In this document: in pieces, positions 1,234 through 62,229 of the stretch
Position numbering within the stretch: position 1 is the stretch's first letter
Layout: every line of letters begins with the position of its first letter
Made by a program: the position numbers and the translations under genes
Assembly: GCA_022425195.1 (NCBI GenBank)
Contig: JAKMFX010000027.1
Coordinates: 1,511 to 65,510, forward strand
Length of the DNA: 64,000 nucleotides
Reading direction: 5' to 3'
DNA from: Flavobacteriales bacterium
Lineage (GTDB): Bacteria > Bacteroidota > Bacteroidia > Flavobacteriales > UBA7430
The notes under the pieces: model-generated
The model's input: the letters and a program-made list of their open reading frames with translations, nothing else
The model's database searches: none
Told to the model about the DNA's origin: nothing

Positions 1234-3093
1234 CTAAACAAACTCGGCTAACTCCATCCAACGATTGGTTTTAATCGCAATCTCATCATCAATTTCTTTG
1301 ATACGTATCCCTAAACCTTTCACCTTTTCTGCATCTAGCTCCATGTTATTGAACTGTTCACCAATCTCTATTTTCTCTTGTTCAAGGTCATCAATCATCG
1401 ACTCAATGGTGTCATACTCCTTTTTCTCGTTGTAGGTCAATTTTCGTTTCTCTTGGGGAGCTTTATCCACAGTAATTCCTGTTTGTTCAGCCTTTACTTG
1501 GTTGGAACGCACATTAGAAGAAACACTGGATCTGTAATCAGTATAGTTACCCGGGAAATCTTTGACTTGGCCTTCTCCCTCAAAAACAAAAAGGTGGTCG
1601 ACCAAGCGATCCATAAAATATCGGTCGTGAGAAACCGTTATCATACATCCTTGAAATTCATCCAAAAAATCTTCTAACACCTTAAGTGTGATCAAGTCCA
1701 AATCATTCGTCGGCTCATCTAGGATTAAAAAATTTGGATTTTTCATCAAGATGGTCAGTAAGTACAATCTCTTTTTCTCACCACCACTAAGTACCGAAAC
1801 GTGTTTCCATTGTGCATCTTTAGAGAATAAAAAACGCTCCAACAATTGTGCAGCGGTCATCTTTCTACCTCCCACCAAGGGAATGTACTCTGCAATGTCA
1901 CGCACAATTTCTATAACACGTTTTCCCTCATCCATGTTCATTCCACTCTGTGTGTAATAACCAATAACAACCGTATCTCCAAGTATAATTTTCCCTGCAT
2001 CAATAGGTTCAGAGCCCGTTAACATATTCAACACAGTTGTTTTTCCAACACCATTCTTACCCACTATACCTATGCGGTCTCGCTTTTTAAAAGTGTAGGT
2101 AAACTGATCGAGAATCTTTAGTTCGCCGTATGCTTTTGACACCTTGTGCAGTTCTAATATTTTAGACCCCAAACGCGTCATCTGTATCTCAAGTTGAACC
2201 TTGTCGTTTTTAATTCTCTGTTTTGCAGATTTCTCTACCTCATAAAAACTTTCAATACGGGCTTTGGATTTTGTCCCTCTGGCCTTGGGTTGTCTTCGCA
2301 TCCACTCCAGCTCTTTAGAGTATAGATTCTTGGCTTTATCAATATTGGTTTGTAAGATGGCCTGCCGCTCTTCTTTCTTTTCGAGGTAATAGGTATAATT
2401 CCCTTTATAACGGTAAAGAGCGCCTTCTTCCAGTTCAAGGATTTCATTACAAATGGCATCTAAGAAATAACGATCGTGAGTCACAATAAAGAGCGTTACT
2501 TGCTCTTTAGTCAAATATTCCTGCAACCATTCAATCATTTCTAGATCAAGATGATTGGTAGGTTCATCAAGGATTAAGAAGTCGGGCTGTTCAATTAAAA
2601 TCTTAGCTAGAGAAAGTCTTTTTCTCTGACCTCCAGAGAGCACTGATACTTCTTGCTTCAAATCATCCAGTTTCAATTTGGACAAAATCGTTTTCACCTT
2701 AACCTCATAATCCCAAGCTTCCAGCTGATCCATAGAGTCAAAAGCCTTTTGGAAAGCACTCGCATCGTCAGGATTTAATAATGCCGCTTCATAGGATCTA
2801 ATGGCTAAAAGCATAGGATTTTCAGACTCATAGATAGCTTCAAATACTGTTTTTGCCTCTCCAAAATCAGACTCTTGTTGTAAAAAAGCAATTTGAACTC
2901 CTTTACGGTAAACAATCTCTCCAGTGTCTGCTGGCTCCACACCTGCTAAGGCCCTTAATATGGTTGTTTTTCCCGTACCATTTCTAGCGACCAATGCGAC
3001 TTTCTGACCTTGATCGATTCCAAAGTTCAAACCCTTGAAAAGCGTCTGAATCCCATATGACTTCCCTAAATCTTGTACTGATAAATAATTCAT
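1234..3093 (-). CDS. ABC-F family ATPase (two ABC cassettes, no membrane domain)
   Basis: Walker A motifs ARNGTGKTT and GKNGVGKTT. Signature motifs LSGGQRKRL and LSGGEKKRL. Charged C-terminal tail. Confidence 0.9.
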   Translation of the reverse strand: MNYLSVQDLGKSYGIQTLFKGLNFGIDQGQKVALVARNGTGKTTILRALAGVEPADTGEIVYRKGVQIAFLQQESDFGEAKTVFEAIYESENPMLLAIRSYEAALLNPDDASAFQKAFDSMDQLEAWDYEVKVKTILSKLKLDDLKQEVSVLSGGQRKRLSLAKILIEQPDFLILDEPTNHLDLEMIEWLQEYLTKEQVTLFIVTHDRYFLDAICNEILELEEGALYRYKGNYTYYLEKKEERQAILQTNIDKAKNLYSKELEWMRRQPKARGTKSKARIESFYEVEKSAKQRIKNDKVQLEIQMTRLGSKILELHKVSKAYGELKILDQFTYTFKKRDRIGIVGKNGVGKTTVLNMLTGSEPIDAGKIILGDTVVIGYYTQSGMNMDEGKRVIEIVRDIAEYIPLVGGRKMTAAQLLERFLFSKDAQWKHVSVLSGGEKKRLYLLTILMKNPNFLILDEPTNDLDLITLKVLEDFLDEFQGCMITVSHDRYFMDRLVDHLFVFEGEGQVKDFPGNYTDYRSSVSSNVRSNQVKAEQTGITVDKAPQEKRKLTYNEKKEYDTIESMIDDLEQEKIEIGEQFNNMELDAEKVKGLGIRIKEIDDEIAIKTNRWMELAEFV

Positions 3094-3136: not shown

Positions 3137-4102
3137 TTAATAATACTCATCCTTTAACAAGTAATTCCCCACATAGTCAGCAACCCCTTCTTCTAAAGTG
3201 TGAAAAGAATTTTCATACCCGACCCCTTTTAGTTTACTCATATTGGCCTGAGTGAAGTATTGATATTTATCTCTAATGTCAATGGGTGTATCTACAAAGC
3301 TTATCTCTTCTTTGACTGCCATACCCTTAAAGGTAGCCTTTGCTAAATCCAAAAAGGCTCTAGCATCTCCAGTTCCCAAGTTGTACAAGCCAGAATCCTT
3401 ACGATGATGTAAGAAGAAATACAATACGGAAACCACATCTTTTATATAAATGAAATCCCTCAATTGCATCCCATCTTCAAAGTTAGGATTGTGTGAACGA
3501 AATAATTTCATGGCACCGGTTTCCCCTACCTGCTTAAAAGTATGATAAACCACCGAAGCCATTCTACTTTTATGATACTCATTAGGGCCATATACATTGA
3601 AGAATTTAATCCCTGCCCAAAAATAGGGCTGTCGTTCCTGAGCCAATGCCCACTTATCAAAATCATTTTTTGAATCTCCATAGGGATTCAAAGGTATCAG
3701 TTGGTCAACGACTTCATGAGTGTCTTCATAACCTAACTCTCCCAACCCATAGGTGGCGGCTGATGAAGCATATAATAGTGGAATACCATAATCGATACAG
3801 GCATTCCACATCTTCTTTGAATAATTAAGATTTAATTTATCAAAAATCTCTACATCAAATTCACTGGTATCTGTGCGAGCACCCAGGTGGAATATGAATT
3901 GAACCAAATGCTCGTTTTCATCTAACCAGTTGAAAAAATCATCTCGATGAACTTTTTCTGAGTAAATTTTCCCTTCGAGATTTTTGTTCTTATCATCCCT
4001 TGAAAAGTCATCAACCAAAATGATGTCTTTGAAGTTCTCTTGGTTCAACTTGGAAACCATACAAGAACCTATAAAGCCTGCAGCGCCTGTAACTACGATC
4101 AT
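3137..4102 (-). CDS. hldD: ADP-L-glycero-D-manno-heptose 6-epimerase-like NAD-dependent epimerase
   Basis: [10 protein letters not shown] Rossmann motif. [25 protein letters not shown] and YQYFTQA blocks match E. coli RfaD/HldD as I recall it. Confidence 0.7.
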
Positions 4103-6153
4103 AATTTTTTATTCATCAATTCAAATGCCTTTTCTGTGTCTTCAGTGGGAATTTGGCACACCTTATTTTCACAAACAAAGATACGTGTTTGACCTTTGCT
4201 AAAACGATTTTCTAGTAGGGGAAGTTTACTCGGACTTTTACTTCCACAAATCATCTTATTTGGAAGGTAATCCGCGTGGAACTCTAATGACTTTTTCAGA
4301 GCTTCTTCACCAACAATTGCCACTTCATAAAATGGATAGATCTGATTCATTAATAAGTTCAACCAATTGGAGTATCCAGAAGGATAATTATGAATATCTC
4401 CAATAACATTGTTCAACATCTGATTGGCTTTTGCATGATAATCTTCTCTCCCAAAATGATGCCCTAACAAAAACAAATTATTTGCCATCACAGAATTTGA
4501 AGCGGGAATCACATTATCATTTACTTCCATTTTTCTTGCGATCAATGCTGGATCTTCATCAGAAGTAAAAAAGAACATTCCCGAAACTCCATCTTGAAAA
4601 TGCTTAATGGAATACTCCATCAGTGTCCCAGCTTGATTTAGCCATAAGGCATCAAACGTTGCCTCATATAGTTTCAAAAATCCTTCAATGACAAAGGCAT
4701 AATCTTCCAAATAACCATTAATGGTAGAACGCCCCTCTTTGTATGAGTGATTTAAACCCCCATCTTTTCGAAGTTGCTTGGTAAGGATAAATTGAGCATT
4801 GGCTAAAGCCAAATCTAAAAAGTGTTGCTCACCAAATGTCAAATAAGCATCAACACAACCTTTTAGCATCAAACCATTCCAGGAGGTTAAAGTCTTATCA
4901 TCCAAACCAGGTCGAACTCTCTTAGCTCTCGTTTCCATTAACACCCGCTCACATGCGGCTATTTTTAATTTCAATTCTTTTGGAGTAAGGTGGTGCCTCT
5001 CCGCCACTACAACATCAGGATCGGATCTCAATAAGATGTAATTACCATGCTCCCAATACCCTGTAGTGTTGACGTTGTAATAATCTGCAAAAACGTCATA
5101 ATCAATAGTCAACAAAGAAGTCAACTCCTCTTTTTTCCAAACATAAAACTTCCCCTCCTCTCCTTCACTATCGGCATCTAAAGCGGAGTAAAAAGCCCCT
5201 TCCTCGGAGCGTAATTCTCGCTCCACAAAAGCAAGAGTCCCGTAGACTAAATTCTTGTAATCTTCATTTTTAAACTTCTGATAGGCTTCACAGTACAAGC
5301 TTACTATTTGTCCGTTATCGTAGAGCATCTTCTCAAAATGAGGCACTTTCCATAGATGATCTGTGGAATAACGAGTCATCCCACCCCCCAAATGATCATA
5401 AATGCCCCCGTAGGCAATTTTATCAAGGCTTAGCTTTACATAGTCTAGTGCATCTTGATGAGCACCTAAATGTGCATACCTTAGTAAACATTGATAATTA
5501 TTCGGGATTGGGAATTTAGGTGATCTATCAGGTCCCCCATCTACAAAATCAAACTCTTTAGCCCAAGAGCGGTAGACCTCATCCAAATGAGATTTACCAA
5601 AGTGATTTTTTTGCTCATTCAATTCGACCTTTTCACTCTGCTGAACGCCATGAGTCAACCTTTGAGCATAATCGAGGGCTTTCTCCAAGTTTTGCTCATA
5701 AAAATCTGCAATGGTATTGATCTGCTCTATCCACTGATCTCTCCTAAAGTACGTACCCCCCCATATCGGTTTTCCGTCCGGCAATACGATACAATTTAAA
5801 GGCCAACCCCCTCTACCCGTCATCAATTGTACCGCATTCATATAGATTTGATCTACATCAGGCCGTTCTTCTCTATCGACTTTTACATTTACAAAACGAC
5901 CATTCATCACTTTGGAAGCCAAATCATCTTCAAAACTCTCATGTTCCATGACATGACACCAATGACAAGCAGAATAACCAATACTCACAATAACTAATTT
6001 ATTCTCTGCCTTTGCTTTTACAAATGCCTCATCACCCCATGGAAACCAATCTACTGGATTGTATGCATGTTGAAGTAAATAGGGAGAGGTTTCGTCTATT
6101 AATCGATTGCTTTGTTTCTTCTTCATGATTTTTTTGATTGTGACTGTACGCAT
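4099..6153 (-). CDS. Thioredoxin-domain protein of the YyaL/DUF255 type (thioredoxin-like N-terminus plus alpha/alpha-toroid domain)
   Basis: [18 protein letters not shown] and [14 protein letters not shown] motifs. 4-nt overlap with hldD. An alternative start is ATG 6126 (MKKKQSNRL). Confidence 0.85.
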
Positions 6154-10626: not shown

Positions 10627-11790
10627 TTATTTTCCAGCATGTAATTTAACATCTTCTTGACCAATATGATCTGCACACAAAATTATGAGTCTTTCAATGA
10701 CATTTCTCAACTCTCTGATATTACCAGACCAACTGTATTTTTTTAAGGCGTTCATAGCACCTGCACTAAACTGCTTCTCTATAATACCATGTTCACCACA
10801 AATCTTCTTGCTAAAGTAAGAAACCAACTTGGGTATATCTTCTTTTCTTTGGTCTAAAGATGGAGTTTTTATCAATATGACTCCCAGACGATGGTATAGA
10901 TCTTCCCGAAAGTTACCATCTCTAATCTCCTTTTGCAAATCTTTATTGGTGGCGGCAATCACCCGAACATTTACTTTAATTTGTTTATCGCTACCTACTC
11001 TTGAAATTTTATGCTCCTGAAGAGCTCTCAGCACCTTTGCCTGTGCCTTCAAACTCATATCTCCGACTTCGTCTAAAAAAAGTGTTCCTCCATCTGCCGT
11101 TTCAAACTTCCCTTTTCTTTGTTTTACGGCAGAGGTAAATGCACCTTTTTCATGTCCGAAGAGTTCCGACTCTATCAATTCTGAGGGAATGGCGGCACAA
11201 TTTACTTCAATCAAAGGCGCCTTACATCGTTCACTTTTCTCGTGAATGGCATGAGCTATTAACTCTTTTCCCGTTCCATTTGCTCCTGTAATTAGCACTC
11301 GTGCACCTGTAGGAGCTACACGATCGATCATCTCATGAATTTTTAACAATTCCGGCGAGCTGCCAATCATTTCATATTTCTTTCGGACTTTCTTCTTAAG
11401 AACTTTATTTTGAGTCACGAGCTTTTTGCGATCGAGACCATTTCGGATGGTACTGAGCAATCGATTCAAATCTGGAGGCTTTGAAATGTAATCAAATGCT
11501 CCCTTTTTGATGGAATCTACTGCCGTATCAATATCACCATGACCAGAAATCATAACGATGGTCAGATCTGGGTGAGTGCCTATTGCTTTCTCAAGTAATT
11601 CAATCCCATCCATCTTGGGCATCTTGATATCACACAGAACAAGATCGTATGTATTGACTTTGATTTTCTCTAAACCTTCTAGTCCATTTTCGGCCAGATC
11701 AACCTCATAAGTTTTATCTTCATCTTTGATGATATTCGAAAGCACATTTCTTATGGATTCTTCATCTTCTATAATAAGGATTTTTGCCAT
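10627..11790 (-). CDS. Sigma-54-dependent response regulator (receiver + AAA+), lacking the C-terminal HTH domain
   Basis: Receiver domain with DLVLCDIKMPKMDG. Walker A GANGTGKE. GAFTGA-variant loop GAFTSA. The protein ends 16 aa after GNIRELRNVIERLIIL. Confidence 0.9.
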   Translation of the reverse strand: MAKILIIEDEESIRNVLSNIIKDEDKTYEVDLAENGLEGLEKIKVNTYDLVLCDIKMPKMDGIELLEKAIGTHPDLTIVMISGHGDIDTAVDSIKKGAFDYISKPPDLNRLLSTIRNGLDRKKLVTQNKVLKKKVRKKYEMIGSSPELLKIHEMIDRVAPTGARVLITGANGTGKELIAHAIHEKSERCKAPLIEVNCAAIPSELIESELFGHEKGAFTSAVKQRKGKFETADGGTLFLDEVGDMSLKAQAKVLRALQEHKISRVGSDKQIKVNVRVIAATNKDLQKEIRDGNFREDLYHRLGVILIKTPSLDQRKEDIPKLVSYFSKKICGEHGIIEKQFSAGAMNALKKYSWSGNIRELRNVIERLIILCADHIGQEDVKLHAGK

Positions 11791-12728
11791 TGTTTTGGAT
11801 TTATTATTATTTCATTAATAAGCCCTTCTTTAAGCGCATAACTTGAAACACGTAAATCGTGAAGGGTCAATCTATTTAATATATAATTAATCATGACAAT
11901 ACAAATAACAATCATGTCAGCACGCATTGGGATTAAACCATCCATTTTTAATCGTTCGTCCAATGTTGATTCATAGATTATTCTTTGAATCTGGTTGTAG
12001 TCATGCATGTCAAATCTATAATATTTATTCTTTTTCCAATTCGTAGGAGATCCATTTTTACAACATATCATTTCTGCTAAGGTATCAAAAGAGCCCGAAG
12101 AACCAATAAGACAATTGACCTCATAGGCCTCAGTCATCTCAAACATTTCCTGTAACACCTCTTCAAAATGCGATTCAAGTATGCTCACATCTTCAGAGGT
12201 AATGGGATCTTTAGGCTGAAAAGTCTCTAGCAGTCTAGCCGCACCCAACTGATAACTTTTCCTCCAAAAAGATTGCTTTTGATTGGCTATGATAAACTCT
12301 GTACTTCCCCCACCTATATCAATTATCAATTTCGGCTTTTCTTCTAAGCTTATAGATTGCCGAACCCCTTTATAAATTAAATCTGCCTCCTGATCTCCAT
12401 CAATGACATGAATGTGTATACCCAATTTGTCTTTTGCATCCTTCACAAATTGAGGTCCATTATTCGCACACCTAATGGCCGAAGTTGCCACCGCATAAAA
12501 CTCATCTACCTCGAACTTTTCTAGGGTGTTCTTATAGGCTTGTAAGGCGCTTAGACCTCTTTGGTAAGCCTCGGAGGTTATGAAATCTTTTGTGATTCCG
12601 CCTTCACCTAATTTCACAGGAATTTTTTTCTTTTTTAAAATCGTGTAACCCGATGTATTCAGCTCTGCAATGAGTAGATTAAAGGTATTCGTCCCCAAAT
12701 CTATAATGCCTATTTTCTTCATTTTCAA
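11769..12728 (-). CDS. Ppx/GppA-family phosphatase (exopolyphosphatase-like, short form)
   Basis: IIDLGTNTFNLLI and IDIGGGSTEF actin-fold ATPase motifs. 22-nt overlap with the downstream activator gene. Confidence 0.8.
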   Translation of the reverse strand: MKMKKIGIIDLGTNTFNLLIAELNTSGYTILKKKKIPVKLGEGGITKDFITSEAYQRGLSALQAYKNTLEKFEVDEFYAVATSAIRCANNGPQFVKDAKDKLGIHIHVIDGDQEADLIYKGVRQSISLEEKPKLIIDIGGGSTEFIIANQKQSFWRKSYQLGAARLLETFQPKDPITSEDVSILESHFEEVLQEMFEMTEAYEVNCLIGSSGSFDTLAEMICCKNGSPTNWKKNKYYRFDMHDYNQIQRIIYESTLDERLKMDGLIPMRADMIVICIVMINYILNRLTLHDLRVSSYALKEGLINEIIINPKQWQKSLL

Positions 12729-27260: not shown

Positions 27261-27980
27261 CTACTTTCTTTTTCTACGTTGTGAACCACCTCTGGCTCCA
27301 CGACCTGACTTCTTCGGTCCTTTCGATAGTGTCTCGATAGGCGTTAAGTCACGTTTACCATACAATTCACCTTTGCATATCCAAACCTTCACTCCTAATA
27401 CACCATAGGTCGTGTGAGATTCAACAAGGGCATAATCAATATCTGCACGGAAAGTATGTAAAGGCGTTCTACCGTCTTTATACATTTCTGAACGAGCCAT
27501 TTCTGCACCATTCAAACGACCAGAAACTTGAATTTTGATCCCTTCAGCACCCATACGCATCGCAGAAGCAATCGCCATCTTTACCGCACGACGGTAAGAG
27601 ATACGTCCTTCAATTTGGCGAGCAATAGATTGACCTACTAATTTGGCATCAATTTCAGGTCTTTTGATCTCATAGATATTCACTTGAACATCTTTTTGAG
27701 TTAGCTTCTTCAGCTCTTCCTTCAAGCGATCTACTTCTGAACCACCTTTACCGATAATGATACCGGGTCTTGCCGTACAAATGGTAATCGTAACGAGCTT
27801 TAAGGTACGCTCGATAATCACTTTAGACACGCTTGCTTTAGCTAAACGAGCATCAATATACTTTCGTATTTTACTGTCTTCAGCTAATTTATCACCGAAG
27901 TCTTTTCCGCCATACCATGCCGAATCCCATCCTCTGATGATTCCCAAACGGTTTCCAATTGGATTAGTCTTTTGTCCCAT
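27261..27980 (-). CDS. rpsC: 30S ribosomal protein S3
   Basis: [14 protein letters not shown]-terminus, a KH domain and a basic tail. Confidence 0.97.
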
Positions 27981-39566: not shown

Positions 39567-39638
39567 TAGTCCGTAGGGGATTCGAACCCCTGTTGCATGG
39601 ATGAAAACCATGAGTCCTAACCCCTAGACGAACGGACC
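39567..39638 (-). tRNA. tRNA-Glu (anticodon TTC), copy 1
   Basis: Minus strand reads GGTCCGTTCGTCTAGGGGTTAGGACTCATGGTTTTCATCCATGCAACAGGGGTTCGAATCCCCTACGGACTA. Acceptor pairing is GGTCCGT/ACGGACT. The anticodon stem is CATGG/CCATG with loop TTTTCAT. The T-arm is AGGGG-TTCGAAT-CCCCT. No CCA is encoded. Confidence 0.92.
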
Positions 39639-39718: not shown

Positions 39719-39790
39719 TAGTCCGTAGGGGATTCGAACCCCTGTTGCATGGATGAAAACCATGAGTCCTAACCCCTAGACGAACGGACC
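39719..39790 (-). tRNA. tRNA-Glu (anticodon TTC), copy 2, identical to copy 1
   Basis: 72/72 nt identical to 39567..39638. The two copies are separated by an 80-nt spacer. Confidence 0.92.
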
Positions 39791-47837: not shown

Positions 47838-49292
47838 ATGTCTATAGATTACAACAAATATGAAACGGTAATTGGCTTGGAGATACACGTCCAACTCAAC
47901 ACCTTAAGTAAAACATACTGTTCCGACGCCACAAAATTCGGCGCCGCTCCCAACACAAACATCAGTCCTATATCACTCGGCCATCCCGGAACCCTTCCCG
48001 TTGCCAACGAAAAGGTAATAGAATACGCGGTACGTCTAGGAATTGCCTTGAATTGTGACATTAGAGAGCGAAATGAATATGCCCGTAAAAACTATTTCTA
48101 TGCCGATCTACCCAAAGGCTATCAAATCACACAAGATAAAACACCCATCTGCAATGGAGGTTTTGTCCAAGTAACAGATAAAGAAGGGAATCCCAAAAAG
48201 ATTGAATTGACCCGTGTTCACATGGAAGAAGATGCGGGGAAAAGTATTCATGACATCGATCCATTTGACTCTCTCATCGACTTAAACCGAGCAGGAGTTC
48301 CTCTACTGGAAATTGTCAGCGAGCCTGTTTTACGCTCCGGAGAAGAGGCATACAGCTTTATTACTGAAGTTAGGAAGTTGGTTCGGTACCTTGACATCTG
48401 TGATGGTAATATGGAAGAAGGATCTATGAGATGTGATGCAAACATTTCGGTTCGTCCAAAAGGAAGTAATGAATTATGGAATCGTGTAGAAGTCAAAAAC
48501 ATGAACTCCATCCGAAACGTTCAAAAAGCGATTGAACTAGAATCTAAAAGACAAATCGAAGTTTATGAGTCTGGAGGTGAAGTTGATCAGGAGACTCGAA
48601 GCTTTAATCCTGTAAAAAATGTGACCTCTGTATTGCGTTCCAAGGAAGATGCTCACGACTACAGATACTTCCCTGAACCCGATCTATCTCCGGTATTAAT
48701 CAGAGAAGATTATATCGAAAAAATCAGAGCAACGCTACCCGCTTTACCTGAAGAATTATTTAGCAAATACACCAAAGAATTTGGTTTATCCGACTATGAT
48801 GCTAGCAATCTTACAGACACCAAAGGCATAGCCCTCTATTTTAATCAGATTTCGAAACACACCCAAGAATACAAAATGGCCGCTAACATTGTCATGGGGC
48901 CTTTGAAGTCTTACCTGAACGACAAAGCCATTGAAATCGAAGAATTCCATTTATCCGCTTCACGTATTTCAGAAATGATACAGCTGATCAAAGAGGGTAA
49001 AATAGCGAACTCGAAAGCCAATCAAGAACTTTTTCCTCTGATGATTGAAAATCCAGAAGTAACGGTTCAAAAATTGGCAGAAGAGAACCAATTGATTCAA
49101 GAGTCTGATTCAGATGCGCTCCTTGGATTCGTTCAGCAAGCCATTGCTAAATTCCCTGACAAAGCAGAGGCCTATAAAAAGGGGAAAAAGAATTTATTAG
49201 GGCTGTTCATGGGAGAAGTAATGAAGCTTTCAAGAGGTAAAGCAGACCCTAAAGTTACCAACCAAATGATTCGAGAAGAACTCGAAAAATAA
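47838..49292 (+). CDS. gatB: Asp/Glu-tRNA amidotransferase subunit B
   Basis: YETVIGLEIHVQL N-terminus, MEEGSMRCDANIS, and a C-terminal YqeY-like domain. Confidence 0.96.
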   Translation: MSIDYNKYETVIGLEIHVQLNTLSKTYCSDATKFGAAPNTNISPISLGHPGTLPVANEKVIEYAVRLGIALNCDIRERNEYARKNYFYADLPKGYQITQDKTPICNGGFVQVTDKEGNPKKIELTRVHMEEDAGKSIHDIDPFDSLIDLNRAGVPLLEIVSEPVLRSGEEAYSFITEVRKLVRYLDICDGNMEEGSMRCDANISVRPKGSNELWNRVEVKNMNSIRNVQKAIELESKRQIEVYESGGEVDQETRSFNPVKNVTSVLRSKEDAHDYRYFPEPDLSPVLIREDYIEKIRATLPALPEELFSKYTKEFGLSDYDASNLTDTKGIALYFNQISKHTQEYKMAANIVMGPLKSYLNDKAIEIEEFHLSASRISEMIQLIKEGKIANSKANQELFPLMIENPEVTVQKLAEENQLIQESDSDALLGFVQQAIAKFPDKAEAYKKGKKNLLGLFMGEVMKLSRGKADPKVTNQMIREELEK

Positions 49293-55807: not shown

Positions 55808-56566
55808 ATGAAGAAAGATCGTTTACAGAAAAGTTTGGAAATCTTCGGCCTACAAGCCGTTATAGATGCCGTCCACGAAGGGAAAGAGTTTGACAAGATT
55901 TTCATGGAGAAAGGCCTGAATACGGGTTTAGCCATGGAGCTGAGAGCGCTTTTAAAGGAACATCACATCATGTTTAAAGCCGTTCCAATTGAAAAGCTGA
56001 ACCGACTTACCCCTAAGGATCACCAAGGTGTTTTTGCATTTGTATCTCCTGTAAACTTCTATCAATTAGGTGATGTATTGATGCAAACTTATGAAGATGG
56101 AAAATCTCCGATTTTTTTAATGCTCGACCGAATTACCGATGTGCGTAACTTTGGAGCGATTGCTCGAACGGCCGAATCCTGTGGGGTGAACGCAATCATA
56201 TTACCTAAAGTAGGGGGTGCCCAGTTAAATTCTGACGCCATGAAAACTTCTACCGGGGCATTAATGCACATCCCCATCTGTAGGGAACAAAATCTTCATC
56301 ACAGTCTGAAATACTTAAAAAAGAGCGGACTCAAAGTAATCGCTTGTACCGAAAAATCGGACACGAATCTTTACGATGTTCCTTTTGTGGATCCTGTGGT
56401 CATTGTTATGGGCTCTGAGGAAGATGGTATTTCTGAGGAAATCTTGGAGCTAGCTGACGCCAGAACACGTATCCCTATGTTTGGAAAAACAGAGTCTCTT
56501 AATGTTTCGGTAGCCAGTGCTGTCATTCTCTACGAGGCTATACGTCAGAGACAACTGGAAGATTAA
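55808..56566 (+). CDS. rlmB: SpoU/TrmH-family 23S rRNA 2'-O-ribose methyltransferase (RlmB-like)
   Basis: N-terminal substrate-binding domain plus SpoU motifs (GAIARTA, VMGSEEDGIS, ESLNVSVA). Confidence 0.88.
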   Translation: MKKDRLQKSLEIFGLQAVIDAVHEGKEFDKIFMEKGLNTGLAMELRALLKEHHIMFKAVPIEKLNRLTPKDHQGVFAFVSPVNFYQLGDVLMQTYEDGKSPIFLMLDRITDVRNFGAIARTAESCGVNAIILPKVGGAQLNSDAMKTSTGALMHIPICREQNLHHSLKYLKKSGLKVIACTEKSDTNLYDVPFVDPVVIVMGSEEDGISEEILELADARTRIPMFGKTESLNVSVASAVILYEAIRQRQLED

Positions 56567-57639
56567 CCCCAAGTATTTTCTTGATAGAAATAGTTAGGAC
56601 TATGGGTTACATCTTCCATTTCTGTATGAAACACTTGCGTCGTTGAGCCCGAAGTTGGAGGTACAATCCAAGACCAATCTGCAGTCACATCTCTTCCTTC
56701 TTTAGCTTCCTGACGCATAAACTGCATAAACTGTTTTGATGCAGAATGATGATCGATGATTTTAACGCCTGCTTTTCGGAAAGAATATAGAACAGCCTGA
56801 TTCAATTCTACCAAAGCACGGTCCTTCCACAAGGAATTTTTATCTCTTATGTCCAAGCCCATTTGTTTTGCCACAACTGGCAATAGGTTATATCGATCCT
56901 CATCAGCAAGATTGCGAGATCCTATTTCTGTTCCCATATACCATCCGTTAAATGGTGAGGCCATGAATTCAATACCACCAACCTCTAGAGTCATGTTCGA
57001 TATGATGGGCGTAGAATACCATTTTAGCTTTAAATCACTAATGGCTTTTATGTTCGGATGTTCAATGGACACTAAGGTGATTATGTCATCTGGGATTTCC
57101 TTCCATGCGGGAGCTTCCCCTTCCTTCTTGATGACAATAGGCAACAGATCAAAAGCACCATTCTTAGGCGCCCAACCCAGCTTAACGCACTCTTTTGTGA
57201 ACCTAAGATGCTTAGGGTCGCCAATAATAGAGCCATCTTCCTGTTCGTAAGCAGCAAAACCTAAAAGTTGTGGATTCATGATTCGAATGCCTTTGTGAGC
57301 ATTAAAAACGCTGATGGTAGATCGAATATTCCCTCCATTGTAGGCAAAGTCAATATGCTCAAATAGGGCCGTAAATATAGCCTCCATTGAATCTACAGAA
57401 CGCTGATCCATGACCTCCATAGATCGCCAAAAAAGGCGACCAATACATTTATTGGAGTTCCGCCACGCTACCTTGGTTCCATAATCCAATTCAAAATCTA
57501 AAAGCTCATACATTCCTCGGTCACGAATGGATTGTTCAACTTCTTCCCAGCGCTTATCAAACAAATCTTGTTTGTTCAATTCGCGATAACACAAGGTTAA
57601 ATATGATTTTGCTTTTTCTCTGAGGGTCGGTTCTGTCAT
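56563..57639 (-). CDS. nos: Nitric-oxide synthase oxygenase (stand-alone bacterial NOS)
   Basis: Heme-thiolate loop AWRNSNKCIGRLFW with Cys65 (codon 57445-57447), GWYMGTEIGSRNL and WIVPPTSGS. 358 aa with no reductase domain. Confidence 0.88.
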   Translation of the reverse strand: MTEPTLREKAKSYLTLCYRELNKQDLFDKRWEEVEQSIRDRGMYELLDFELDYGTKVAWRNSNKCIGRLFWRSMEVMDQRSVDSMEAIFTALFEHIDFAYNGGNIRSTISVFNAHKGIRIMNPQLLGFAAYEQEDGSIIGDPKHLRFTKECVKLGWAPKNGAFDLLPIVIKKEGEAPAWKEIPDDIITLVSIEHPNIKAISDLKLKWYSTPIISNMTLEVGGIEFMASPFNGWYMGTEIGSRNLADEDRYNLLPVVAKQMGLDIRDKNSLWKDRALVELNQAVLYSFRKAGVKIIDHHSASKQFMQFMRQEAKEGRDVTADWSWIVPPTSGSTTQVFHTEMEDVTHSPNYFYQENTWG

Positions 57640-59761: not shown

Positions 59762-60880
59762 CTATTGAAACATTTCTTTAACTCTGTCAAAGAATGATTT
59801 ATCATTCTTGTCAGGGTCAGGATTAAAATTACTCTCATCTCTATTGGCCTCAAAGAATTTTCTTTGGTCCTTATCAAGAGATTGTGGCGTCCATACATTT
59901 ACGTGGATTAACAAATCTCCAGTACCATAACTCTCAACACTCGGAAGTCCTTTCCCTCTTAGCCTTAAGAGCTTTCCCGATTGAATTCCTGGCTCTAACT
60001 TAATCTTTACTTTAGAGGATAGGGTTTGTATTTCAGGGTTTGCCCCCAAAACAGCGTCGGGATAACTGATGAATAAATCGTGGTGTAAATTCTTACCATC
60101 TCTTTTGAGAGATTCATGAGGAATTTCTTCAATGAGTACGATGAGGTCTCCAGCAATACCGTCTAGGGGAGCGTAATTTCCTTTACCTGAAACGGACAAC
60201 TGCATACCATCTTCAACACCCGCAGGTATTTTAATGCTTACCGTATCATCTTTGTGAATCATCCCATTGGCATCAGAACCAGCAGGTCGATTGTCTATAA
60301 TCCTTCCTGCGCCATTACAGGCAGGACATGTTGAAGAGGTTTGCATTCTTCCCAAAGGCGTGTTTACAATCTGTACCGTTTGACCAGAGCCATTACAATG
60401 TGTACATGTCTTGTGAGTAACACCCTCGGCATTGATGAGTCTTTTGACTTTGATTTTTTTCTCTACACCATTGGCAATTTCGTCTAAAGTAAGTTTCACA
60501 CGAACTCTCAGATTTGAGCCTCTAGATCTTCGACGACCTCCACGAGAGCCACCAAAGCCACCACCGAAGGCCGACCCGAAAATGTCACCAAACTGACTAA
60601 AGATGTCATCCATGTTCATTCCGCCACCGCCAAATCCGCCACCGAATCCACCGCCCTCAAGACCTGCATGACCGTACTGGTCGTAACGAGCTCTCTTGTC
60701 GGGATTGTTGAGGACTTCGTAGGCCTCGGCCGCTTCTTTAAATTTGGCCTCAGCACCTTTGTCATCCGGATTTTTATCCGGGTGATACTTAATCGCTAGT
60801 TTGCGATACGATTTTTTAAGCTCTTTGTCAGTAGCACCTTTGCCGACTCCCAATACTTCGTAATAATCTCTTTTAGCCAT
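59762..60880 (-). CDS. dnaJ: Molecular chaperone DnaJ (only two of four CxxCxGxG motifs)
   Basis: J domain with HPD, a G/F region, CTHCNGSG and CPACNGAG only, and C-terminal beta domains. Confidence 0.95.
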
Positions 60881-60889
60881 GGTTATTGG

Positions 60890-61450
60890 TTACTGCCCGA
60901 CGACAACTTTCGCGTAGCGTATTACTTTATCATTTAACATATATCCTTTCTCAGTCTGATCAATTACCTTTCCTTTCAGCTCATCAGATGGGGCTGGAAT
61001 TTGAGTGATTGCTTCATGAAAATCAGTATCAAAATCTGATCCAATGGATGACTCCATCTCTTTCAAACCTTTTTGCTCAAGAATACCTACAAGCTTGGAA
61101 TGAATCAGGTCAATTCCTTGGGTCAAGGCCTCAGCATCTTGGTCATCATCTCGATGTTTTGCCGCACGGTCAAAATCATCCAAAACTGGGAGCATGGACT
61201 CAAAAAATTCCAAACCTGCATTTCTGAACAAATCAATTCGTTCTTTCGCCGTTCTTTTCTTAAAGTTTTCGAACTCGGCGAACATCCTCAATTGTTTATT
61301 CTTTAATTCAGCAACTTCGCTCTCCAACTGCTCCTCTCTACTCAGCTCAATAACAGGCTCTTTTTCAACCGATTGATCTTCAGAAGCCTCAAGGGTTTCA
61401 TTTGAATCTTGTACTTCTTCTTGTTCTTTTTTAAGCTCTTTCTCTGGCAT
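60890..61450 (-). CDS. grpE: Nucleotide exchange factor GrpE
   Basis: Acidic N-terminus, a coiled coil with FENFKKR, and a C-terminal beta domain. 9 nt upstream of dnaJ. Confidence 0.95.
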   Translation of the reverse strand: MPEKELKKEQEEVQDSNETLEASEDQSVEKEPVIELSREEQLESEVAELKNKQLRMFAEFENFKKRTAKERIDLFRNAGLEFFESMLPVLDDFDRAAKHRDDDQDAEALTQGIDLIHSKLVGILEQKGLKEMESSIGSDFDTDFHEAITQIPAPSDELKGKVIDQTEKGYMLNDKVIRYAKVVVGQ

Positions 61451-61480
61451 CTTTATCGTATTAAAATGTAGAACATACTA

Positions 61481-61497
61481 AGCAAATTGTTTGCCAA
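61481..61497 (-). promoter_or_regulatory. Sigma-54-type -24/-12 element TTGGCAAACAATTTGCT upstream of grpE
   Basis: On the minus strand, GG and GC are separated by 10 nt (TGGCAA-N5-TTGCT against consensus TGGCAC-N5-TTGCW). The GC lies about 32 nt upstream of ATG 61450. Confidence 0.45.
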
Positions 61498-61598
61498 TAG
61501 CCTTCTTCTGACATTATGACGCAAAAATAACGAAATTCAGGCAGAATTGACGGGTTTTTGTTGCTTGAAATAGGAAAACTGAAAGGATGTCTTTTCGA

Positions 61599-61623
61599 CA
61601 AAAAAAACCTCATCAAAGAGGTG
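61599..61623 (-). terminator. Probable terminator after the thioredoxin-like gene 61651..62229
   Basis: Minus strand reads ACCTC-TTTGAT-GAGGT followed by a run of 8 T. The stem is short. Confidence 0.5.
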
Positions 61624-61650: not shown

Positions 61651-62229
61651 CTAGGGGGTCAATCTTTTTATGGTCGCGTAGAGTGCTGGCCCTTTAAGGT
61701 TCTTAGCGATGATGAACCCTTTTTCATCAATCAAAAAATTTGTCGGAAGACTATTGACCTCATATCTCTTGCTGATTTCAGAATCCCAACCGCTTAATTC
61801 GCTCCCGTGTGCATCCCAAATCAAGCCGTCCTCTTCTATCGCCAGCATCCAGTCTTGTTTGGCATTTTGCTGTTTGGAATTGCCTTGTCGATCCTTAAGT
61901 CCATCCAGAGAAATACTGATGACTTCAAAACCCTCTGCCATAGCGAATGAAGCTTGATGAAATTTATTGTAGATGGAAACTATATTTGGATGCCCCCTGC
62001 GACAAGGACCGCACCATGAAGCCCAAAAGTCAAGTAAAACAACCTTTCCTCTATAATCCGATAAGTGAAAAATGTTTCCGTCGGGTGAAGAAATAGAAAA
62101 ATCAGGGGCAAGGTCACCTATGTTTAATTGCTCATCATTTGCTGAGACATCAACATGCTCAGTTTTTACAAAGCCTAAACACAGGCAAATGGAAACTACA
62201 AACAGAAGTATGGAAATACGTTTCATCAA
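61651..62229 (-). CDS. Secreted TlpA/ResA-like thioredoxin-fold protein
   Basis: Signal peptide MMKRISILLFVVSICLCLGF and redox motif WASWCGPC. Confidence 0.85.
   Translation of the reverse strand: MMKRISILLFVVSICLCLGFVKTEHVDVSANDEQLNIGDLAPDFSISSPDGNIFHLSDYRGKVVLLDFWASWCGPCRRGHPNIVSIYNKFHQASFAMAEGFEVISISLDGLKDRQGNSKQQNAKQDWMLAIEEDGLIWDAHGSELSGWDSEISKRYEVNSLPTNFLIDEKGFIIAKNLKGPALYATIKRLTP

Follow-up and report, generated by a model that had tools for sequence, protein, structure and literature searches.

What drives transcription of the grpE-dnaJ chaperone operon in the Bacteroidota, a phylum that, to our knowledge, lacks the two textbook heat-shock circuits? The question is raised by a 64-kb stretch of DNA from a Flavobacteriales bacterium, referred to here as the window, in which an initial annotation placed a sigma-54-type -24/-12 promoter directly in front of grpE. 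We examined this motif within the window, in close relatives and across the phylum, and compared it with published promoters.

The grpE-dnaJ locus

The two chaperone genes lie on the minus strand. The first, grpE (60890..61450, 186 aa), is matched by Pfam GrpE (3.1e-40) and by the NCBIfam GrpE models, and dnaJ (59762..60880, 372 aa, by its open reading frame coordinates) carries the Pfam DnaJ, DnaJ_C and DnaJ_CXXCXGXG domains. Since dnaJ starts 9 nt past the grpE stop codon, the two are presumably co-transcribed. Upstream lies a thioredoxin-like gene with its end at 61651. On its 3' side, a hairpin that resembles a terminator and leads into a T run (61607..61622, minus strand) parts grpE from upstream transcription, so that grpE needs a promoter of its own. 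The gene order murA, thioredoxin-like, grpE, dnaJ is the same in the window and in its relatives, and the closest GrpE proteins, like the closest relatives of the sigma-54 activator discussed below, come from marine metagenomes and from metagenome-assembled genomes labelled Flavobacteriales.

A UbiD-family gene follows grpE-dnaJ in the window, unlike in one related lineage (L214/L215, 3760..4552), where clpP and the trigger factor gene lie directly downstream on the opposite strand. Several database GrpE homologs are annotated at 208-211 aa (P0018, P0019 and P0023-P0026), and in locus L212 (2001..2636) the called GrpE start lies 69 nt upstream of a conserved ATGCCA start. That called reading frame runs across the sigma-54 motif, and its start has probably been miscalled. 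Elsewhere in the window, a 358-aa open reading frame (56563..57639, minus strand) gives a full-length match to the nitric oxide synthase oxygenase domain (PF02898, 7e-156) and, by this match, is a bacterial nitric oxide synthase in a marine Flavobacteriales genome.

A sigma-54-type motif upstream of grpE

The motif, TTGGCAAACAATTTGCT, occupies 61481..61497 on the minus strand and was identified by reading of the sequence, by weight matrix and by conservation. It is intergenic and in the sense orientation, with its 3' end 30 nt before the grpE ATG. Read as TGGCAA-ACAAT-TTGCT, it differs from the consensus TGGCAC-N5-TTGCW at one of the 11 specified positions. The initial annotation's description of the site proved accurate: the GG (61495-61494) and GC (61483-61482) doublets are spaced by exactly 10 nt, and the C of the GC doublet lies 32 nt 5' of the ATG at 61450. 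The accompanying statement that the window holds no other correctly spaced TGGCA/TTGC pair was confirmed by a search of both strands of the 64 kb, in which TGGCA-N6-TTGCW occurs as a single copy, the grpE site itself. Shuffled sequence yields 0.36 such sites per window, which corresponds to about 0.0005 expected in the sense strand of the intergenic region of about 200 nt.

A weight matrix trained on 60 grpE upstream sites from other Bacteroidota also places the grpE site at the top of the window, with 22.0 bits compared with a training median of 21.3 bits. Another site that scores well with this grpE-derived matrix, TGGCAAATAATTTG (4474..4487, minus strand, 20.0 bits), falls inside a DUF255 thioredoxin-domain gene (4099..6153), with 372 nt separating it from the next start codon. 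Because it is intragenic and has no copy of the upstream dyad described below, it is probably a chance match.

Conservation of the motif

In an alignment of the intergenic region from the window and eight relatives, with GrpE identities of 67-96%, the 15-nt core TGGCAAACAATTTGC is invariant in eight of the nine sequences. The exception, L216, reads TGGCAAACATATTGCC, with three substitutions. Two more blocks further upstream, GCGnCAnnnTGTCA and AAAnCCGTCAAnTCTnCC, are conserved in these close relatives, while the stretch from the motif to the ATG and the bulk of the remaining upstream region have diverged.

Conservation extends across the phylum. A GrpE-alignment scan with one genome per species gave 80 Bacteroidota loci, chosen on the GrpE protein alone, that cover Pedobacter, other Sphingobacteriales, Chitinophagales, Saprospirales, Bacteroidales and Flavobacteriales. 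TGGCA-N6-TTG is present on the sense strand within 300 nt upstream of grpE in 77 of them; in the remainder of these 80 loci, the same pattern has a background rate of 0.0099 per 300 nt. Two further loci carry it slightly beyond 300 nt, bringing the total to 79 of 80, and the last has TGGCT in place of TGGCA. Elsewhere in these loci the pattern falls almost exclusively inside genes, one recurrent match being in the Gly/Phe-rich region of dnaJ.

The -12 region is less uniform. Across 184 distinct composite sites, in which the motif is accompanied by the dyad (L001-L200), TTG is followed by A at 108 sites, by C at 39, by T at 31 and by G at six. With C at so few of these sites, the -12 element of the regulon departs from the textbook consensus; TGGCAAA-N4-TTTGA is commoner than TTGC in Bacteroidota chaperone promoters, and the window copy has the canonical C. 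We found no description of this relaxed -12 position, with TTGA as the commonest form, in the literature searched. Conservation of GG-N10-GC, which had been put forward as a check on the promoter, is therefore borne out for the core in close relatives and for TGGCA-N6-TTG throughout the 80 loci bar one, but not for the C of the GC doublet, which varies phylum-wide.

Transcription start and published promoters

Transcription starts have been mapped in Flavobacterium psychrophilum (Guerin et al. 2021, PMC9723704). These starts define a -24/-12 motif, SM4, that was assigned to sigma-54 and precedes groES-groEL, lon, dnaK, grpE-dnaJ, htpG, skp and clpB; mutation of conserved SM4 bases lowered the activity of a remF reporter. 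The chaperones form cluster B254, which has a high basal level, and in F. psychrophilum the -33 box is dispensable. Supplementary Table S2 of the same source lists promoters as 61-nt sequences in which position 51 is the start. For nine SM4 promoters taken from it, the start lies 12-15 nt past the G of TTG, the remF promoter having an irregular -24/-12 spacing. For glnS, one primary-sigma promoter of this table, the start lies 3 nt past the G of TAnnTTTG. Going by these entries, the TTTG of chaperone promoters is not used as a -7 box, and we rejected the idea that the TTTG of the -12 region is the -7 box of a primary-sigma promoter.

By analogy with the F. psychrophilum SM4 starts, transcription in the window is predicted to begin at 61468..61470 on the minus strand, probably at the A at 61469, so that the 5' leader would be about 18-20 nt long. 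The leader of about 20 nt first proposed from the motif is in line with the roughly 19 nt predicted from the SM4 spacing in the entries available from PMC9723704.

A comparative survey of sigma-54 regulons published in 2025 (PLoS One, PMC12316311) likewise reported an enrichment of predicted sigma-54 promoters in front of the Bacteroidota genes for GroEL, GroES, GrpE, DnaJ, DnaK and IbpA, with Flavobacteriia showing it most strongly. The initial annotation regarded RpoN control of a chaperone operon as unusual. That holds against Proteobacteria and Firmicutes, but within Bacteroidota it is the reported norm, judging from this survey and from PMC9723704. As sigma-54 chaperone promoters are already documented in the phylum, the grpE finding is correct without being new. 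We found no genetic proof of sigma-54 dependence and no rpoN mutant for Bacteroidota in the literature searched, and the Bacteroides thetaiotaomicron transcriptome papers in it make no mention of sigma-54 control of chaperones.

A fixed-phase dyad upstream of the -24 element

Anchoring the 80 grpE loci on TGGCA brought out a second element, a 13-bp dyad with the phylum consensus TGnCA-N3-TGnC(A). In the window this candidate regulator site reads CGTCATAATGTCA (61509..61521, minus strand), and 13 nt separate the C (61510) of its TGTC (61513..61510) from the T of TGGCA (61496). In the window and its closest relatives, C replaces the first T of the dyad, which is otherwise kept in close relatives. 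The full arrangement, TGnCA-N3-TGnC followed after 13-14 nt by TGGCA-N6-TTG, occurs on the sense strand in 76 of the 80 grpE loci and on the antisense strand in none. Spacing is rigid: in the 29 non-Pedobacter loci with the composite, TGnCA begins at -25 from the T of TGGCA in 23 and at -26 in six. The center of the dyad lies near -45, whereas classical enhancers bind much further from the promoter.

Further upstream, a distal element, CGTCAATTCTGCC (61540..61552, minus strand), lies about 31 nt from the proximal dyad and has invariant G-CA and T-C columns. It is conserved within the lineage of the window only; in Pedobacter the distal site is a different one and lies near -76. We rejected the idea that the whole phylum shares a distal dyad copy, since its position varies between lineages.

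The composite is not confined to grpE. A scan of metagenome contigs with the pattern TGNCANNNTGNC-N13-TGGCAA-N5-TTG returned at least 120 loci, and Pfam assigned the first downstream open reading frame to GrpE in 81 of 113 cases among the matches listed. The others among these matches include ClpB (about six), HSP20 (three), HSP70/DnaK (two), thioredoxin (two), HSP90/HtpG (one) and ClpP (one), while the rest of the 113 listed resemble chance or intragenic matches. Because grpE regions supplied the pattern, the predominance of grpE is to some extent circular; the recovery of other chaperone genes is not.

The F. psychrophilum promoters in the part of Table S2 used here (PMC9723704) point the same way. 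Those of groES and clpB have the dyad at the same offset, clpB being printed as ACATTTTGTCC, 13 nt and TTGGAA. The lon promoter is ambiguous, with TGCCA at -20 instead of -25/-17 and a poor fit to the composite. Seven non-chaperone SM4 promoters from these entries (skp, remF, Rfp1, T_0015, upstream-of-dxs, AsmA and THC0290_0455) do not have the dyad. Its presence in chaperone promoters and its absence from these seven separate a proteostasis sub-regulon from other sigma-54 promoters. The literature searched yielded no published description of the dyad.

The dyad most likely docks a regulator that makes the chaperone promoters respond together. Such a regulator could be an activator that acts without DNA looping, an adaptor for an activator that has no DNA-binding domain of its own, or a repressor. 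We propose more tentatively, at somewhat less than even odds, that Bacteroidota chaperone promoters form a distinct sigma-54 subclass and that the dyad is the docking site of a heat-shock or proteotoxic-stress regulator.

One candidate for the binding protein is RprY, an OmpR-type response regulator of Porphyromonas gingivalis that gel-shifts the groES, dnaK and clpB promoter regions (PMC3646045). Its binding to chaperone promoter regions in a member of the Bacteroidota is what makes it a candidate. The RprY paper defines no binding sequence, and for an OmpR-type regulator the 8-bp center-to-center spacing of the dyad would be unusual.

A candidate sigma-54 activator

Sigma-54 promoters do not fire without an ATP-driven activator. 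The window encodes a protein of this class (10627..11790, minus strand) that, by Pfam and its translation, consists of a receiver (REC) domain, an AAA+ domain and an AAA lid. The match to the sigma-54 interaction domain (PF00158) reaches 3.4e-71, and the loop that contacts sigma-54 reads GAFTSA, compared with the usual GAFTGA. The protein ends at residue 387, and NtrC-type models cover it only to about position 376 of 463. With REC, sigma-54 and AAA-lid as the only Pfam matches, a stop at 387 and no helix-turn-helix, the protein is, as first described, an activator without a DNA-binding domain.

At least 120 homologs, 80-100% identical, were found in marine Flavobacteriales, including Polaribacter; among the matches listed, all are 387-388 aa long except the first (506 aa), and none has an HTH_8 domain. 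Conservation of the activator exceeds that of GrpE itself, as would fit a core function. Because the activator gene overlaps at its start with the end of a Ppx/GppA phosphatase gene (11769..12728), they probably form one operon. Chlamydia CtcC and Helicobacter FlgR are likewise activators without a DNA-binding domain.

It is plausible that the 10627..11790 protein acts on the grpE promoter, and we regard it as a candidate activator. No rpoN gene was found in the window among the listed open reading frames of more than 120 aa, 30 of which were scanned with Pfam and gave no RpoN domain. The presence of a sigma-54 activator in the window implies an rpoN gene in the genome.

Other control elements and alternative readings

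Classical heat-shock elements are missing from the vicinity of grpE. The CIRCE repeat (TTAGCACTC-N9-GAGTGCTAA) has no match in the window with up to three mismatches, which upholds the original statement that no CIRCE-like repeat lies near the gene. No sigma-32-like CTTGAA-N12-18-CCCAT occurs near grpE either. This pattern is found three times in the window, at 3034..3056 and 27527..27554 on the plus strand and at 49209..49234 on the minus strand, against an expectation of 0.33, with three matches reached in one of 100 shuffles; all three copies are inside listed open reading frame spans, none of them near a chaperone gene. A scan for generic sigma-70 promoters gave nothing above shuffle level, with a model that is not the right one for Bacteroidota. 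At about 19 nt, the predicted grpE leader is too short for an RNA thermometer. An Rfam search of the whole window detected no known RNA element in this leader and returned two tRNA genes only (39567..39638 and 39719..39790, minus strand), both at 58.5 bits and 152 nt apart, apparently a tandem duplicate.

Of the alternatives to a sigma-54 promoter, transcription from a primary-sigma promoter survives best. The sequence TATTTTTG at 61522..61529 on the minus strand fits the Bacteroidota primary-sigma -7 box, TAnnTTTG, at every specified position and might mark a second, basal promoter. The grpE-dnaJ operon could then be transcribed wholly or basally from this box, the sigma-54 element being a second, inducible promoter or irrelevant, and the dyad, at about +1 to +13 from such a start, would be an operator. 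The box is kept in seven of the nine close relatives, and the high basal level of the F. psychrophilum chaperone cluster and the dispensability of the -33 box in that species (PMC9723704) would be compatible with a promoter of this kind. We nevertheless judge it unlikely. TAnnTTTG is expected by chance 0.13 times per 200 nt, no -33 TTTG is found at a suitable spacing from TATTTTTG, and the box has no fixed position 5' of the dyad across the phylum. It is also far less conserved than the TGGCA-N6-TTG core, and for grpE in F. psychrophilum a start of the sigma-54 type alone is listed in the entries used from PMC9723704.

The conserved core might instead be no promoter at all but a palindromic operator (GCAAA-N3-TTTGC within TGGCAAACAATTTGC) for a dimeric transcription factor of chaperone genes. 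It does hold a 5-bp inverted repeat, and CAAA-N4-TTTG is generally self-complementary, yet the pattern of conservation is asymmetric: the left TGG is invariant, the right CCA is usually missing, and TTGA is the commonest right-hand form. On this ground we rejected the core as a symmetric operator. In F. psychrophilum (PMC9723704), moreover, mapped starts fall at a fixed 12-15 nt downstream, as for a promoter element, and the remF reporter weakens when conserved motif bases are mutated. Taken together, an operator seems very improbable. That the grpE motif is a functionless chance match can be excluded on the conservation data, for although shuffled windows hold 0.36 matches each and the good-scoring site at 4487 is itself probably chance, the position, orientation and invariance of the motif in relatives and its presence in 79 of 80 orthologous regions speak against it.

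Discussion

The consensus match, the position and orientation of the motif, its retention in relatives, its phylum-wide presence and the start mapping in F. psychrophilum (PMC9723704) all fit the promoter that was first proposed. On this comparative evidence, the motif at 61497..61481 very probably serves the grpE-dnaJ operon as its sigma-54 promoter. We are similarly confident in the joint reading, in which this RpoN promoter belongs to a Bacteroidota proteostasis regulon whose promoters have a dyad for docking a regulator.

The mechanism that we infer for this organism can be outlined as follows. RNA polymerase with sigma-54 would sit on the TGG of the -24 element and the TTGC of the -12 element as a closed complex, which an AAA+ activator would open through ATP hydrolysis. 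Transcription would begin near 61469 and produce a leader of about 19 nt. The dyad CGTCATAATGTCA, at a fixed 13-14 nt 5' of the -24 element, would dock a regulator shared by chaperone genes, and the promoter, as one member of a proteostasis regulon common to Bacteroidota, would presumably be induced by heat.

The nearest known system is the B254 cluster of F. psychrophilum with its SM4 motif, which shares with the window the grpE-dnaJ operon, the class Flavobacteriia and the -24/-12 motif. The two differ in that F. psychrophilum has mapped starts, while the window belongs to an uncultured marine Flavobacteriales bacterium known here from sequence alone. In the sections drawn on here, PMC9723704 defines the -24/-12 motif only, and the dyad is not mentioned. 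The 2025 survey (PMC12316311) predicts promoters by weight matrix for whole gene families and describes neither an upstream element nor a relaxed -12 position.

Proteobacterial sigma-54 promoters such as glnAp2 with NtrC and pspA with PspF have the same GG/GC spacing, the same need for an AAA+ activator and the same position relative to the start. Their enhancer sites lie at -80 to -150, whereas the sole conserved upstream site of the Bacteroidota regulon lies near -45 at a fixed spacing. The Bacteroidota regulon also often replaces the C of the -12 element, unlike canonical TGGCAC-N5-TTGCW promoters. With the sigma-32 and HrcA/CIRCE systems, it has in common the target genes grpE, dnaJ, dnaK, groESL and clpB, but the control logic differs, the grpE region having neither CIRCE nor a nearby sigma-32-like promoter.

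The grpE locus adds an abundant uncultured marine lineage to the evidence for sigma-54 promoters of core chaperone genes in Bacteroidota. Being short and specific, the fixed-phase dyad could be used as a DNA bait and as a search pattern to find the regulator and the full regulon. If the proposed role of the dyad is true, it would be the cis-element of a phylum-wide heat-shock control apart from sigma-32, HrcA/CIRCE, HspR and CtsR.
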